From Ferruginibacter sp. (GTDB lineage: Bacteria; Bacteroidota; Bacteroidia; Chitinophagales; Chitinophagaceae): DNA of 64,000 nucleotides. The notes under the pieces are model-generated. The model searched no databases. It was not told the DNA's origin and saw nothing but the letters and a program-made list of their open reading frames with translations. Location: assembly GCA_039920245.1 (NCBI GenBank), contig JBDSEE010000120.1, positions 27,036 to 91,035 on the forward strand, in the 5' to 3' direction. Made by a program: the position numbers and the translations under genes. Shown here in pieces: positions 20,855 through 38,681 of this stretch; within the stretch, counting starts at the first letter, position 1, and every line of letters starts with the position of its first letter.

Positions 20855-22303
20855 ATGAAGAAAAAGGTACTTATTATAGATGATGATCTGGATATGTGTA
20901 CACTTTTAAGTCGCTTTCTTACCCGTAATGGATACCAGGTTGACTCGGCACATTCAGGCGCAAAAGGGATTTTAAAATTTAAAGAAGAAAATTTTGATAT
21001 CGTGATATGCGATTATCGCCTGGGAGATAAAGAAGGCAAGGATGTACTCCAGGAAATTAAAGCTATTTCGCCACGAACTATTGTATTAATAATCACAGGA
21101 TATTCAGATATCAAAACAGCTGTAGATGTTATTAAAATGGGTGCATATGATTATATAACAAAGCCATTGGTGCCAGATGAAGTACTGACAGTTTTGAATA
21201 ATGCGCTGAATAGTGTTAATGACGGTGGTTCTGCATCTAATGCCGCATTAAATGCAAATATTAAAGGCATTACTTCAAAACTTTCCGGTGCAAAACATCT
21301 CACTATAAACAATGAGTTTCTGGTAGGAGAAGCGGGAACAACAAAGGATCTGTATAACCAGATAGAAATAGTTGCTCCAACTAATTACAGCATCATTTTA
21401 TATGGAGAGAGCGGCACCGGTAAAGAAGTTATTGCAAAAACAATCCATAGCCTTAGTGACCGGAGAGATAAACCATTTGTGGCAATGGATTGCGGTACGC
21501 TATCCAAAGAACTTTCGGGTAGCGAACTTTTTGGTCATGTGAAAGGAGCATTTACCGGAGCGCTTACAGACAAAGAAGGACATTTTGAACTTGCGAATGG
21601 AGGTACCTTATTTTTAGACGAAGTAGCAAATCTTTCTTATGAAATTCAGGCATCTCTGTTAAGGGTGATACAAGAACGAAAATTTAAAAGAGTTGGTGGC
21701 AATAAAGAAATGCCGGTGGATGTTCGCATCATTGTAGCCTCAAATGAAAACCTTCAGGAAGCTTACAGGAAAGGCAAGTTCAGGGAAGATCTTTATCATA
21801 GGTTCAATGAATTCTCCATTAATCTTCCGCCACTAAGAGAAAGAAAAAAAGACATTCCATTGTTTGCAAATTTCTTTTTGCAAAAAGCTAAGGCAGAATT
21901 AAACCGGGATATAGATGATTTTGATAATGAAGTAATGCAAATGTTTACAAGCTATTCATGGCCTGGAAACCTACGGGAGTTTAGGAATGTAGTTCGCAGG
22001 GCTGTTCTTCTTACACAGGAAGGAAAGATCAGTGCAAAAACACTTCCCTGGGAAATTACCAATCCATCAGATTCGCCGCTGTCTCATACACCTCACCCCG
22101 GTTCCATAGCCGAGGAACAACCCGTAATTTTTGTTAAAAAAGACTATGACCTTAAAGATGCTGCCAGCAAAGCAGAATACGAAGCCATCATGAATGTCCT
22201 GAAAGAAGTGAATTTTAATAAAACCAAGGCAGCAGAAATATTAAAGATCGACCGTAAAACACTTTATAATAAAATAAAAAGTTTTGAAGAATCGAATAAC
22301 TAG
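20855..22303 (+). CDS. Sigma54-dependent response regulator (REC-AAA+-Fis HTH, NtrC family)
   Basis: REC domain, GESGTGKE, intact GAFTGA, LFLDEV, WPGNLRE and a C-terminal KAAEILKIDRKTLYNK helix-turn-helix. Confidence 0.96.
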   Translation: MKKKVLIIDDDLDMCTLLSRFLTRNGYQVDSAHSGAKGILKFKEENFDIVICDYRLGDKEGKDVLQEIKAISPRTIVLIITGYSDIKTAVDVIKMGAYDYITKPLVPDEVLTVLNNALNSVNDGGSASNAALNANIKGITSKLSGAKHLTINNEFLVGEAGTTKDLYNQIEIVAPTNYSIILYGESGTGKEVIAKTIHSLSDRRDKPFVAMDCGTLSKELSGSELFGHVKGAFTGALTDKEGHFELANGGTLFLDEVANLSYEIQASLLRVIQERKFKRVGGNKEMPVDVRIIVASNENLQEAYRKGKFREDLYHRFNEFSINLPPLRERKKDIPLFANFFLQKAKAELNRDIDDFDNEVMQMFTSYSWPGNLREFRNVVRRAVLLTQEGKISAKTLPWEITNPSDSPLSHTPHPGSIAEEQPVIFVKKDYDLKDAASKAEYEAIMNVLKEVNFNKTKAAEILKIDRKTLYNKIKSFEESNN

Positions 22304-23219: not shown

Positions 23220-24674
23220 ATGCAAGCAACTGATTGGGCTTTAAAGATTTTGATAATAGATGATGATGAAGATGATTTTTTTATTACCAGCGAATATATC
23301 CGCAGCATACCAGGTAATAAATACAAGATAGACTGGTGTTATAAATATGATGAGGCGCTTGCACATGTACATAAGCGGCAATATGATCTTTACTTCGTAG
23401 ATTATCATCTTGGTGCCCGCACAGGATTGGATCTCATAAAAGAAGCTTCTCACCAAAAAATAGAAGAGCCTTTTATTTTGCTTACAGGAAAGGGTAATCA
23501 AAAAATTGACATTGAGGCTATGCAGGCAGGAGCTGTAGATTACCTGGTAAAATCTGAAATGGATACTGAAAAAATGGAACGCTGTATAAGGTATTCCATT
23601 GAGCGGTCCAGGGCAGTAAAGGCATTAAAGGCTAATGAACGAAAGTTTAGAAAGATATTTGAACGATCAACCGATGCAGTGTTTTTAATAGATGAAAATT
23701 TTGTTTTCGTTGATGTTAACGATGCTAGCACACGCCTGTTTGAATATAGCCATAAGGAAATTCATCAGCTGAACTTATTTACACTCTTTGATAATGAAGA
23801 GGACATTGCCTTAGTACAATCGCAATTGCAGTATTCAAAAGAGGTAGAAGATAAAGAAGTGCTGATGAAAACTAAAACGGGTAATTTAAGAAACTGCATA
23901 CTTTCTTTATCGCAGGAAAAAAATCAAAATGGGTTTTATTACCAGGGGTTAATACATGACATAACTAATCTGAAAAAAGCAGAGAAGGCAATGTTGCGTA
24001 CAGAAAAAAGAAATGTTGCAGACAGGCTTGTACACGTTCTGGCACATGAGGTTAGAAACCCCTTGAATAATATTAATCTGTCTCTTGAACAGTTATCCCC
24101 AGACGTTCTGGAATCTGACAATAGAATTTTCATAGACATCATACAACGGAATAGTAAGCGTATTGAGAGCCTGATAACGGAACTTTTAAATAGTAGCCGG
24201 CCTGCATCAATTAAGCTTGAAGAAATCTCTTTGCAATACATAGTAGAAGAAAGTTTAGCTGTGGCAAAAGACCGGCTTACGCTGAAGAAAATTTCATTAA
24301 TGAAAGTTTTCCCAGATGAAGATTATACCATAATGGCTGATGAAGAAAAACTGAAAATAGCAATACTTAATATTGTACTAAATGCTGTAGAGGCAATGAC
24401 AGAAGGGGATGGTAAACTTACGGTTGAAATAAGGAAGGAATCAGGAAAGATTCAGTTAACAATATCAGACAATGGGTGCGGTATAAGCGATGAAAATCTG
24501 CAGAGATTATTTGAGCCTTACTTTACAGCAAAAAGAAATGGTATGGGCCTGGGCCTGGCTACTACTATTAATATTTTGCAATCCCATAAAGCAGAAGTAG
24601 AAGTTAAATCTAAACTTGATGAAGGAACAAGCTTTATTTTAAGCTTTTTTGAAACAGATCAAATGAGCGAGTAA
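23220..24674 (+). CDS. Hybrid sensor histidine kinase (REC-PAS-HisKA-HATPase)
   Basis: ILIIDDDEDD REC, a PAS domain, LAHEVRNPL H-box, NAVEA and GMGLGLA. Confidence 0.95.
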   Translation: MQATDWALKILIIDDDEDDFFITSEYIRSIPGNKYKIDWCYKYDEALAHVHKRQYDLYFVDYHLGARTGLDLIKEASHQKIEEPFILLTGKGNQKIDIEAMQAGAVDYLVKSEMDTEKMERCIRYSIERSRAVKALKANERKFRKIFERSTDAVFLIDENFVFVDVNDASTRLFEYSHKEIHQLNLFTLFDNEEDIALVQSQLQYSKEVEDKEVLMKTKTGNLRNCILSLSQEKNQNGFYYQGLIHDITNLKKAEKAMLRTEKRNVADRLVHVLAHEVRNPLNNINLSLEQLSPDVLESDNRIFIDIIQRNSKRIESLITELLNSSRPASIKLEEISLQYIVEESLAVAKDRLTLKKISLMKVFPDEDYTIMADEEKLKIAILNIVLNAVEAMTEGDGKLTVEIRKESGKIQLTISDNGCGISDENLQRLFEPYFTAKRNGMGLGLATTINILQSHKAEVEVKSKLDEGTSFILSFFETDQMSE

Positions 24675-25144
24675 AGCGGCAATACTTCTACCACATGCTG
24701 AATAAATTTTGAATCCAAATTTTGAATATTCATTGAGCTGTTACCCATGATCTGCCATTCTTCATTTTCCATTTCTACCAGTGTGTATAAGTACTTTTTA
24801 TTTGAGTTATATATTTCGTACATCTTGTGATTTCCTTTTAGAAATCCAACAAATCCAAAAGATACTAATTTGCCCTGCATATGTTGTTTATGCCAGGTTA
24901 GCATTTTTGGTACGTGTACAGGCTGGCGCATAAACGGCCGGATACCTGATCCTATCATTTGTGCAAGCTCGGAAAACCCAAGATCTTCCTCAATCCATTT
25001 ACCTGTTTCCACATCTGTGAAAAATATATTTTCGTAACCATTCTCAAAAAATACCTTATACATACAATGATGTCTGTTAAAGATTTCTTCAAACCACGCA
25101 CGGGTTTCTATTTCCCCCATCTTGATTTTTAAAACTTTGTTCAT
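24659..25144 (-). CDS. Hypothetical protein, apparently two tandem small beta-meander/helix units
   Basis: 161-aa ORF; the C-terminal half resembles ORF 2566-2817. Confidence 0.7.
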   Translation of the reverse strand: MNKVLKIKMGEIETRAWFEEIFNRHHCMYKVFFENGYENIFFTDVETGKWIEEDLGFSELAQMIGSGIRPFMRQPVHVPKMLTWHKQHMQGKLVSFGFVGFLKGNHKMYEIYNSNKKYLYTLVEMENEEWQIMGNSSMNIQNLDSKFIQHVVEVLPLYSLI

Positions 25145-25166
25145 ATAATGGTTTATTAAAAATATT

Positions 25167-25181
25167 TCACAAATCCTGCCA
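25167..25181 (-). promoter_or_regulatory. Sigma54-like element (TGGCAGGATTTGTGA)
   Basis: GG-N10-GA, 23 nt upstream of the ATG at 25144. Confidence 0.5.
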
Positions 25182-25271
25182 ATAAATAGTTATAAAATTT
25201 TGTGTATTTCTTGTTTTTACAACCCAATTTTTCAGGATTTTTATTATAAATAGTTACTTATTTCCTTTGTT

Positions 25272-25289
25272 TGTAGAATTAATTTCCCA
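25272..25289. promoter_or_regulatory. Candidate enhancer TGTAGA-ATTAAT-TTCCCA
   Basis: Lies between divergent sigma54-like boxes; two mismatches in the right arm. Confidence 0.45.
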
Positions 25290-25330
25290 GTTCATTTTAC
25301 ATTTATTCAAGGTCAGCAATGAAATATGGT

Positions 25331-25345
25331 TGGCATAAAAGATGA
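25331..25345 (+). promoter_or_regulatory. Sigma54-like element (TGGCATAAAAGATGA)
   Basis: GG-N10-GA. No ORF follows, only a short terminator-ended segment. Confidence 0.5.
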
Positions 25346-25356
25346 ATTATGCCTAT

Positions 25357-25418
25357 TAGGTTTTTCATAGGATATTGGATTTAAAACGGGGCTTAATTTT
25401 TATTAGGGCCCCTTTTTT
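25357..25418 (+). ncRNA. Candidate ~60-nt small RNA
   Basis: Bounded by the sigma54-like box and a GC hairpin plus T6; the 5' end is inferred from promoter geometry. Confidence 0.5.
25388..25418 (+). terminator. Intrinsic terminator
   Basis: GGGGCTTAAT-TTTT-ATTAGGGCCCC followed by TTTTTT. Confidence 0.8.
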
Positions 25419-25556
25419 ATTTTATGGCTTAATAAAAAAATAGTGATTTGTCAGAACTCGTAATCAAAAAAAAAATTCATAACATGCCCTTACGTTGTAA
25501 TGTGAAGCCAACACTAGGTTTTTATGTTATTTACTTAATAAGTTTTCTTAAAAAAT

Positions 25557-25590
25557 GCTTTGATTAATGAAAATCTGCGTATTATTGCAG
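25557..25590 (+). promoter_or_regulatory. Probable housekeeping promoter of rho (-33 TTTG / -7 TAnnTTTG-like)
   Basis: TTTG...TATTATTGCAG, a near match to the Bacteroidota consensus. Confidence 0.45.
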
Positions 25591-25721
25591 TGGAATAGGT
25601 TGAGAAGCATATCCTAATTACATTACTTCAGCATTAACCATTTCCAATCAGATAAATTTTCAACTTCAATTTTTTATTACATCAGACCGGATTTTATTGG
25701 GAAACCATTTTCTAAGACTTT

Positions 25722-27347
25722 ATGTACGATATTTCACAACTAAACGATCTGCTCGTTCCTGAGCTCGTGGATATTGCAGAATCACTTCAGATTGACCACG
25801 CAAAAAAATTAAATAAACAGGATTTAATATACAAGATCCTGGATAAACAAGTAATTATGAACACAGAAAATAAGGGGCAGGATGCTGATAAGCCAAAACG
25901 CAAACGTATTGTAAAAGACTCCGCTGCGGAAGCAACTGCACCAGCAGAAAAACAGGAGGCTCCTAAAAAGGAGGGAATGGCCACCCGTCCAAAAAAGGCA
26001 GAGGCAGATAAAAAGCCATTGAAAAAAAATAAGCCTGAAGCGGAATCACAAATAGATGAGGAGGAAGAACTTCAGCCCATAACAAGCGAGCAAACTACCA
26101 TCCCGGCCGCTATTGCTCAAATGCTGCAAGAAGAAGATATACAACAGCCGGAAATTGAAATGGAAGAAGTGTCTTCACAACCAAACTTTCCCAAACCTCA
26201 AAGAAGAGAACAACCGGTTTTCAACATTGAATTTGATGGCGTAGTGCTGGGTGAGGGAGTTTTGGAAATGATGCCTGATGGATACGGTTTTTTACGCAGT
26301 AGTGATTACAATTATCTGTCTTCGCCCGATGATATATATGTATCTCCTTCTCAAATTAAATTATTCGGGTTAAAAACAGGCGATACTGTTTATGGGTCTG
26401 TTCGTCCGCCTAAGGAAGGGGAAAAATATTTTGCTTTATTGAAAGTAGAAACGATTAATGGCAAAAGCCCGGAAGAAGTTCGGGATCGTGTGCCCTTTGA
26501 TTATCTCACACCATTATTTCCATTTGAAAAATTGAATTTATGTACTAAAGGGGATAATTATAGTACCAGGATTATGGATCTTTTTACGCCAATAGGTAAA
26601 GGACAAAGAGGCCTGATCGTAGCACAACCTAAAACAGGTAAAACAATGTTACTGAAGGAGCTTGCAAATGCTATTGCCGAAAATCATCCGGAGTGCTACC
26701 TGATGATTGTGCTTGTTGATGAGCGCCCTGAGGAAGTTACTGATATGGAAAGAAGTGTAAGAGCTGAGGTAATTGCATCAACCTTTGATGAACCGGCTGA
26801 AAAGCATGTAAAGGTGAGTACGATAGCCTTGCAAAAAGCAAAACGTTTGGTAGAATGTGGTCATGATGTGGTGATACTTCTGGATTCAATTACCCGTCTT
26901 GCACGGGCACATAATACAGTTGCTCCATCTTCAGGAAAAGTATTGAGTGGTGGTGTGGAAGCGAATGCTATGCAAAAGCCAAAACAATTTTTTGGCGCTG
27001 CACGCAAAATTGAAAATGGTGGGTCGCTTACAATTATAGCAACAGCTCTTGTAGATACTGGTAGTAAAATGGATGAAGTTATTTTTGAAGAATTCAAAGG
27101 AACAGGTAACATGGAATTGCAATTAGAACGCAAGCTTTCTAATCGCCGTATCTATCCAGCTATCGATATTGTTTCTTCTTCTACTCGTAGAGATGATCTT
27201 TTGCTGGATAAAGATACTTTCCAGCGCATGTGGGTTTTAAGAAAACATATTGCAGATATGAATCCTGAAGAAGCAATTAATATGTTGCTAAAGAATATGA
27301 AGGGTACGAAAGATAATGCTGAGTTTCTTATAAGCATGAACAGTTAA
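25722..27347 (+). CDS. rho: Transcription termination factor Rho with N-terminal insertion
   Basis: [37 protein letters not shown] and FKGTGNME. Confidence 0.98.
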
Positions 27348-37983: not shown

Positions 37984-38069
37984 CATTATTTTATTAACAG
38001 CCCGTGTTTAACCGTACCTGCCATACTTAAGTTGTACAGTCTTTGTTTGAATGCTGTAAAAAAACCTTT

Positions 38070-38681
38070 ATGAAAAACAATACAATCATTCCGGGTTATA
38101 AAACATATGAGTACCTGCTTGTGTTAAATCCGCACGAAGAACTCCGTAATAAGATCATGCAGGTGAAAGAACAGTTTGCAAAGGATTTTCAAACCAGTTT
38201 TGCTGTACACAGTAAGCCACATATTGCGCTGGCTACATTTACACAATACGGCATGATAGAAGAAAGAATTATTAACCGCCTGCATGCAATCGCAATGGGA
38301 TTTCCGCCTATTAAAATTGAGTTGAAAGATTATGGCAGTTTTCCTACACACACTATTTTTATTAATGTATCATCAAAACTTACCGTCACAAACCTTGTGA
38401 AACAAATACGCACCTATGCACAGCGCCTGATGAAACTGGACGCAGACAACAAACCACATTTTCTGCTGGATCCTTTTATACCAATTGGCCGCAAACTTTT
38501 GCCATGGCAATATGAAAAGGCATGGCTGGAATATAGCCACAAACACTTCACGGGTAGATTTATAGCCGATGGAATGTTATTATTAAAAAGGCCGTCAGGA
38601 GAGTTGAATTACCAGATAGTGCAGCGATTTGAATTTCAAAACCTGCCGGTGAATACTGTACAAGCAAGTTTGTTCACTTAA
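38070..38681 (+). CDS. 2H phosphoesterase / 2'-5' RNA ligase-like protein with degenerate motifs
   Basis: YEYLLVL, KPHIALATF and GSFPTHTIFINV. Start reassigned to ATG 38070. Confidence 0.75.
   Translation: MKNNTIIPGYKTYEYLLVLNPHEELRNKIMQVKEQFAKDFQTSFAVHSKPHIALATFTQYGMIEERIINRLHAIAMGFPPIKIELKDYGSFPTHTIFINVSSKLTVTNLVKQIRTYAQRLMKLDADNKPHFLLDPFIPIGRKLLPWQYEKAWLEYSHKHFTGRFIADGMLLLKRPSGELNYQIVQRFEFQNLPVNTVQASLFT

Follow-up and report, generated by a model that had tools for sequence, protein, structure and literature searches.

The plus-strand segment at 25359-25419 of the window (the whole stretch of 64,000 nt that was analysed, lying on contig C120 of a 3.6-Mb, 221-contig genome) is, judged by its sequence and that of its relatives, a real multicopy regulatory-RNA gene, far beyond chance. 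It is likely to encode a trans-acting sRNA of ~61 nt from a multicopy Chitinophagaceae family, distant sister of the Bacteroides FopS/GibS 'R1-seed' sRNAs, whose single-stranded 5' end would pair with translation initiation regions (TIRs) and block ribosome loading as FopS and GibS do. The unit is not unprecedented, since its seed class is already known from Bacteroides; no earlier description appears to exist of this branch of the class, of its group of sigma-54-type promoters or of the secretion-system target that is likely for it, and the mechanism appears to be of a known kind.

The RNA unit sits in a 577-nt gap separating two divergent genes (Table 1), and no plus-strand ORF of at least 40 aa was found between 25145 and 25721. 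No stable fold is predicted for the 29 nt at 25359-25387, and the length of the RNA as deduced from sequence is 61-64 nt, with ~61 nt for the segment 25359-25419. The ~30 unstructured nucleotides, the hairpin, the T6 and the absence of a plus-strand ORF were all found where the original prediction had placed them, and its expected transcription start near 25357 agrees well with G25359, at which conservation across the family begins. Of the dyad that it reported at 25272, an A/T palindrome (AATTAATT, 25277-25284) is present and nothing more than that; the repeat finder did not pick it up.

Table 1. Coordinates of the RNA unit, its candidate promoter and the neighbouring genes in the window
Feature	Position	Strand	Remarks
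NtrC-type sigma-54 activator (Sigma54_activat response regulator)	20855..22303	+	context; ~3 kb upstream
Hybrid histidine kinase	23220-24674		upstream of the sRNA
161-aa ORF	24659..25144	-	divergent neighbour; no Pfam/NCBIfam match; outside the RNA
Sigma-54-like promoter	25331..25346	+	TGGCAT 25331-25336, spacer AAAAG, ATGAA 25342-25346 at the -12 position
7-bp inverted repeat	25332..25353	+	GGCATAA (25332-25338) / TTATGCC (25347-25353); overlaps the promoter, outside the conserved RNA
sRNA unit	25359-25419	+	23-nt single-stranded 5' segment, 6-nt linker, 10-bp hairpin, T-run; no ORF
5' seed	25359..25381	+	GGUUUUUCAUAGGAUAUUGGAUU, 23 nt, invariant; inferred transcription start G25359
A-rich linker	25382..25387	+	UAAAAC; length varies between family copies
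Terminator hairpin	25388..25412	+	GGGGCUUAAU-UUUU-AUUAG(G)GCCCC; 10 bp, one bulged G; covaries
T-run, RNA 3' end	25413..25423	+	TTTTTTATTTT; T6 at 25413-25418
rho	25722..27347	+	Rho_N, Rho_RNA_bind and ATPase domains; downstream gene on the same strand, ~300 nt away

The segment 25359-25423 is repeated 8 times in its own genome, which also holds two divergent siblings, and among 24 genomes belonging to its genus 23 carry 1-10 family copies each. Across the GTDB family, the 22-nt seed GGTTTTTCATAGGATATTGGAT, likewise present 8 times in the own genome, was found in 135 of 201 genomes (104 of 151 genera), most of the carriers having 1-10 copies, while the reversed seed pattern gave 0 matches in the same 201 genomes. 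At least 119 public genome stretches also contain the first 22 nt of the seed unchanged, and all the named carriers among them are Chitinophagaceae (e.g. Ferruginibacter, Flavisolibacter, Puia, Niastella, Flavihumibacter and Sediminibacterium); outside Chitinophagaceae and Bacteroidales, matches to the core seed pattern are gene starts at about chance level. In all own-genome and relative copies compared, GGTTTTTCATAGGATATTGGATT is identical, the upstream DNA is unrelated and the hairpin varies by compensating substitutions. A covariance model built from 90 family copies gives the window copy 83.5 bits (E = 1.8e-18) and full copies 62-89 bits, and among 401 Bacteroidota genomes it yields no match above 35 bits outside the GTDB family.

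The covariation of the hairpin was assessed in 103 copies aligned by the covariance model. A standard pair is formed in 95.3% of the hairpin cells, both sides have changed in 9 of the 10 pairs, and compensatory cells number 90 as compared with 13.3 in shuffles, the observed score being reached by 0 of 500 shuffles. In 77 of 101 sequences pair 45-60 is formed by U.G; on the opposite strand it would be C.A, which indicates a plus-strand RNA. The stand-alone sRNA gene put forward in the original prediction, with a length of ~60 nt, a seed at the 5' end and an intrinsic terminator, is thus supported.

Several related RNAs were observed alongside the family. The two divergent siblings of the own genome lie at G000:C184:6789-6847 (-) and G000:C86:56-115 (+); one of them, AGUUUUCAUAGGGUACGGAUU..., has one counterpart at ~40 bits in many related genomes, and the other, GGUAUUCUAAAAAUAUAGAUU..., stands behind CTGGCAC-N5-ATGTT. 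At least 5 genera share a second, conserved sibling sRNA of ~80 nt, which consists of (U)GAUUUUUCAUAGGAUAAGGUUUAAUGGUUAAUGGUAUUUGAUUAGUG and a terminator (L228:1436-1518 (-), L229:1498-1579 (+) and L230:1498-1576 (+), also L233 and L247); in L229 and L230 a type-1 copy precedes it on the same strand by ~230 nt. At L245:1000-1700 there is an array of short repeats, in each of which TAT(T/C)CTATGAAAAAC adjoins TTGGCACAGGTTACTAA, and these may represent additional seed-bearing units read antisense.

In B. thetaiotaomicron, FopS comprises 14 paralogous sRNAs of 65-70 nt. Their 5' nucleotides 1-21 anneal next to the start codon in susC-like mRNAs, which stops translation, the base pairing being proven by compensatory mutations, and the RRM-1 protein RbpB binds the 5' part of FopS and antagonises its repression (Ruettiger et al. 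2025, PMC11697453). GibS (Rfam RF04182) carries an R1 seed at its 5' end, and its pairing at the start codon has been shown experimentally (Ryan et al. 2020, PMC7366714). The T7 oligonucleotides and northern probe used in B. thetaiotaomicron give GUGUUUUUCAUAGUAUUAGAUUUAAGG as the FopS/GibS 5' end (PMC11697453), and the window RNA reads GGUUUUUCAUAG-GA-UAUUGGAUUUAAAA. The core UUUUUCAUAG is identical in both, and when the R1/R1' seed GUGUUUUUCAUAGUAUUAGAU, located at the extreme 5' end, is compared with the window GGUUUUUCAUAG-GA-UAUUGGAUUUAA, the two differ by a 2-nt insertion and one A/G change. The start-region pairing put forward in the original prediction would thus correspond, by analogy, to the proven mode of action of a homologous seed (PMC11697453, PMC7366714).

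The Rfam 15 model of FopS, RF04319 (gathering score 56 bits), scores 15.6 bits (E = 1.7) on the window copy, below its threshold, in an end-to-end alignment over 25358-25422 that places the window seed on model positions 1-27 and displays the 2-nt insertion and a deleted middle segment. The same model gives 28-35 bits on the ~80-nt Chitinophagaceae sibling and 60-81 bits on FopS-type loci of other families in the class; Rfam searches over 24000-27000 and over the unit itself produced no match near threshold. Moreover, the spacing between the -7 box and the seed is the same in the Chitinophagaceae family and in FopS, and this shared promoter-seed spacing together with the graded series of scores argues for common descent. 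As the curated threshold of RF04319 is not reached, the Chitinophagaceae family was filed as a sister of FopS and not as a member.

The likeness extends to multicopy occurrence, to a length of ~65-70 nt (61-64 nt here) in which a Rho-independent terminator comes after a conserved, single-stranded 5' end, to the UUUUUCAUAG...UAUU(A/G)GAUUUAA core at the very 5' end, to the equally spaced TAnnTTTG box (in 87 of 153 copies here, the window copy having none), to the predicted action at translation initiation regions of outer-membrane protein mRNAs, and to a host genome with RRM-1 proteins and without Hfq or ProQ. On the other hand, the Chitinophagaceae seed has the GA insertion and the A-to-G change, its RNA lacks the middle segment GGUUAAnAAAnGAUU, its copies typically number 1-10 per genome instead of 12-15 and occupy positions conserved across genera, one subclass has sigma-54-type promoters, and the hosts belong to Chitinophagales and not Bacteroidales. 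GibS shares the R1 seed at the 5' end but is a single-copy RNA of 145 nt that contains another seed, R2, and is transcribed from a non-canonical promoter; only about its first 25 nt are comparable. Since a sister family with the same seed occurs in Chitinophagales, the seed is old and widespread, FopS and GibS having been described so far only in Bacteroides and Bacteroidaceae.

Similar arrangements are known from more distant systems. The Qrr1-5 sRNAs of Vibrio are multicopy, Hfq-dependent RNAs that have an invariant pairing region common to the paralogues and sigma-54-dependent promoters; they resemble the present family in copy number, in the common pairing region and, for a subclass, in promoter type, but their sequence is unrelated and all Qrr copies are driven by sigma-54 as compared with ~9% here. 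In the enterobacterial RybB and OmrA/B, which repress outer-membrane protein mRNAs, a conserved 5' seed acts as an autonomous recognition domain and is followed by the terminator; these RNAs differ from the present one in their Hfq dependence, their much shorter seeds and their unrelated sequence. A search of the literature library for the seed sequence returned no relevant match.

Among the targets predicted from pairing, the best supported is a PorG-like gene of type IX secretion, which the seed would recognise through its leader. A total of 2,964 crude TIRs of the own genome, with the first ATG taken as gene start, were scanned for seed duplexes, and the TIR of the PorG-like gene ranks first among them at -22.3 kcal/mol; the encoded protein scores 77 bits against NF052316, below the curated cut-off of 130. 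In the ~40 nt after its -7 box this leader consists almost wholly of two sites, A (AAUCCAAUAGUAGAAAAACC) and B (AAAUCUGAUAUCU-AUG-AAC), with which the conserved blocks in aligned PorG-like leaders coincide. Site B resembles the reverse complement of the whole seed, so that the seed would pair with both sites and its CAU would lie opposite the start codon at site B. In the own-genome orthologue site A is strong and site B weak (-11.3 kcal/mol).

Orthologues of the PorG-like gene, a candidate chosen as the top match, were then compared from 30 genera (36-61% protein identity). Their leaders, which are related and not independent of one another, form seed duplexes with a median of -18.0 kcal/mol, and 28 of the 30 genera stand at -15 kcal/mol or better. 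At the same cut-off, each of 20 shuffled seeds reaches 0-5 of the 30 leaders, and 9.7% of 556 control TIR windows pass. Of 59 genomes that have a strong PorG-like orthologue 58 carry the seed, as do 15 of 38 without one, a co-occurrence whose p value (Fisher, 2.7e-11) is confounded by phylogeny and inflated by shared ancestry. A further 3 of the top ten predicted partners are type IX secretion cargo. As a difference from FopS, SusC TIRs are not enriched here: the TIRs of 17 SusC and other TonB-dependent receptors pair in silico no better than the rest of the genome (Mann-Whitney p = 0.16), the PorG-like leader being the best target.

A broader role had been foreseen in the original prediction, in which the RNA is a global repressor that pairs over AUG-AAA-AA(C) and blocks initiation on many mRNAs, especially those of exported Met-Lys-Lys proteins. 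Some of its premises were borne out: many window genes do begin with ATG AAA AA (ATGAAAAA starts 8 of the 55 window ORFs of at least 100 aa), and the 10-nt match announced for the gene near 38070 was located as TATGAAAAAC at 38069, where a 204-aa ORF begins. In the whole genome AUGAAAAA starts 205 of 2,964 genes, 76% of which are signal-peptide-like; signal-peptide-like proteins make up 44% of the top 50 partners, 12 shuffled seeds giving 6-28%; the AUG lies within 59 of the top 100 duplexes; and UUUUUCAUAG, the part of the seed common to all siblings, as well as the type IX secretion cargo among the top partners, would also fit such a role. However, strong duplexes between the seed and the 2,964 TIRs are no commoner than with shuffled seeds, and consequently the claim of many targets is unsupported. 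Across 201 genomes TATCCTATGAAAAAD gave 44 matches as compared with ~24-36 for a reversed control, which was not counted as enrichment, and 5 of the 30 matches examined are sibling sRNA genes read antisense; genome-wide complement scans of a single genome gave noisy matches. An A/U duplex of 8-10 nt is, in addition, weak, and invariance over 23 nt is more in keeping with an extended, specific site than with a short, general one. Repression of this general kind is therefore unlikely.

Other sequences complementary to the seed were noted. In a genome of another class of the phylum, a secreted-protein gene (L162:1501-1523, same site as L195) starts with AAUCCAAUAUGCU-AUG-AAA-AAC, 22 of 23 positions being complementary to the seed and the opposite strand lacking the sRNA terminator; by eye, the gene has a T9SS sorting tail and a FISUMP-like region. 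The own genome contains three paralogous CA-rich RNAs of ~120 nt with promoter and terminator and no ORF, located at L204:1501-1623 (G000:C46:2107-2229), L215 and L218 (the latter two on C16 and C169), each of which has the seed-complementary site CCAAUAUCCUA once or twice. Their role as a sponge was considered and is unsupported, as they are present in this genome only. Apart from these sites, the own genome has a structured repeat RNA of ~135 nt, closed by a long terminal stem, that contains UUUCCAAUAUCCUGAC (G000:C62:1-900 and C45:7200-8510), and one of its copies lies upstream of a gene named by eye as coding for a BtuF-like binding protein.

The invariance of 23 nt across more than 100 genera could also reflect a protein-binding site, with the RNA mainly binding or titrating a protein such as an RbpB-like RRM-1 protein. 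The seed has two GGAU motifs, the own genome encodes 3-4 RRM_1 genes, and RbpB does bind the 5' part of FopS (PMC11697453). Nevertheless, this reading leaves the conserved two-site complementary leader unexplained, the pairing of FopS is proven by compensatory mutations (PMC11697453), and neither Hfq, ProQ nor CsrA was found in the own genome, in agreement with the lack of Hfq assumed in the original prediction. A sponge of the CsrA type was rejected on the last of these grounds, and binding or titration of a protein as the main function is quite improbable. Under the preferred reading of a trans-acting, base-pairing sRNA, an RRM-type protein may still modulate the RNA, as RbpB does FopS.

The genomic setting argues against a role in cis. 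Autoregulation by attenuation in its own leader is known for E. coli rho, and the unit lies on the same strand 300 nt upstream of rho. But rho adjoins the sRNA at no other fetched locus than the window, the unit ends in a full terminator for which no alternative fold was found, and the downstream gene is convergent to the sRNA in 102 of 139 cases. Furthermore, several genomic positions are conserved across genera, with neighbours named by eye: a GldN-like gene -> sRNA <- uvrC at 25 loci, -> sRNA <- recQ at 18 loci, and PDH E1-beta -> sRNA <- sigma-54 activator at 11 loci. The mostly convergent downstream gene and these conserved positions argue that the sRNA is not a leader; a cis-acting attenuator of rho is thus very improbable, and rho is context only, probably with a promoter of its own. 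A repeat without transcription or an element acting at the DNA level is just as improbable, and so is a small minus-strand ORF or leader beginning AUG AAA AAC: the unit is multicopy and its minus strand reads AAUCCAAUAUCCU-AUG-AAA-AAC and holds a 21-codon ORF in the window copy, but the U.G pairs and the T-run fit the plus strand only, the promoter boxes stand at a fixed distance on that strand, the minus-strand ATG ORF has a median of 18 codons across the family with no conserved peptide, and neither terminal inverted repeats nor target-site duplications were found around family copies. A dCas12f guide RNA or 'hth-associated ncRNA' (PMC13472631) was also rejected, the unit having no variable guide and its recurrent neighbours including no HTH gene.

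Two types of promoter were observed upstream of the trans-acting sRNA and its paralogues. The Bacteroidota sigma-A -7 box, TAnnTT[TC][GA], accounts for the 87 copies mentioned above; in 78 of these exactly 4 nt separate its end from the GG, where 5.7 would be expected. TGG[CT]A[CT] stands at -27/-28, the sigma-54 position, in 13 of the 153 copies (the window copy and 12 others), none of which has the -7 box; this position takes 13 of the 23 occurrences of the motif in the 80-nt upstream regions. The -12 elements of this class include the canonical TTGCC of L089 (TGGCAC-N5-TTGCC) and TTGCA of L051, and TTGAA in four copies.

In the window copy TGGCAT begins 28 nt ahead of the conserved +1 G, no TAnnTTTG box is present (its -12..-5 reads TATGCCTA), and the -12 position is ATGAA, without GC. 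The sigma-54 promoter of the original prediction is plausible from the position of TGGCAT, and rpoN (in the own genome at C179:72156-72629) and the NtrC-type activator gene are present; the lack of GC at -12 weakens it. Because ATGAA replaces TTGC, sigma-54 dependence of the window copy is uncertain, and the chances for and against it appear about even; its promoter may be weak or dead. If sigma-54 does drive this copy, it could act via the activator 3 kb upstream, a possible candidate regulator by inference. No sigma-54 activator was seen adjoining sigma-54-type copies, activators flanking one sigma-A-type locus class only. The 7-bp inverted repeat probably arises only because the -24/-12 consensus is itself palindromic; a paralogue on C163 has TGGCAT-N5-ATGCC, including the repeat GGCAT-N5-ATGCC. 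A further dyad, ATACCC-N6-GGGTAT, occurs ~45-60 nt upstream of copies in the class flanked by the GldN-like gene and uvrC (L002:1440-1470, L005, L006, L010 and L011) and is probably an operator for some regulator.

As each copy has its own promoter, different signals would feed one seed. It can be proposed, tentatively and as a possibility well short of the family assignment, that UUUUUCAUAG-seed sRNAs form an ancient Bacteroidota-wide module in which, in Chitinophagaceae, sigma-A, operator-controlled and sigma-54 paralogues feed one invariant seed that shuts off translation of the PorG-like gene via its two-site leader. If this were true, the capacity for secretion and gliding would be tied to nitrogen, envelope or other signals. 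A link to type IX secretion, if there is one, would be new. A seed invariant in more than 100 genera and a leader with two sites provide a concrete, testable sRNA-target pair in a phylum without Hfq and without Shine-Dalgarno-led initiation, and sigma-A and sigma-54 promoters on one seed offer a natural case of signals converging on a single post-transcriptional output. With regard to neighbours of the sigma-54-type copies, a homologue of the 161-aa ORF (47.5% identity) was observed divergently beside the sigma-54-type copy of another genome of the same genus (L009).
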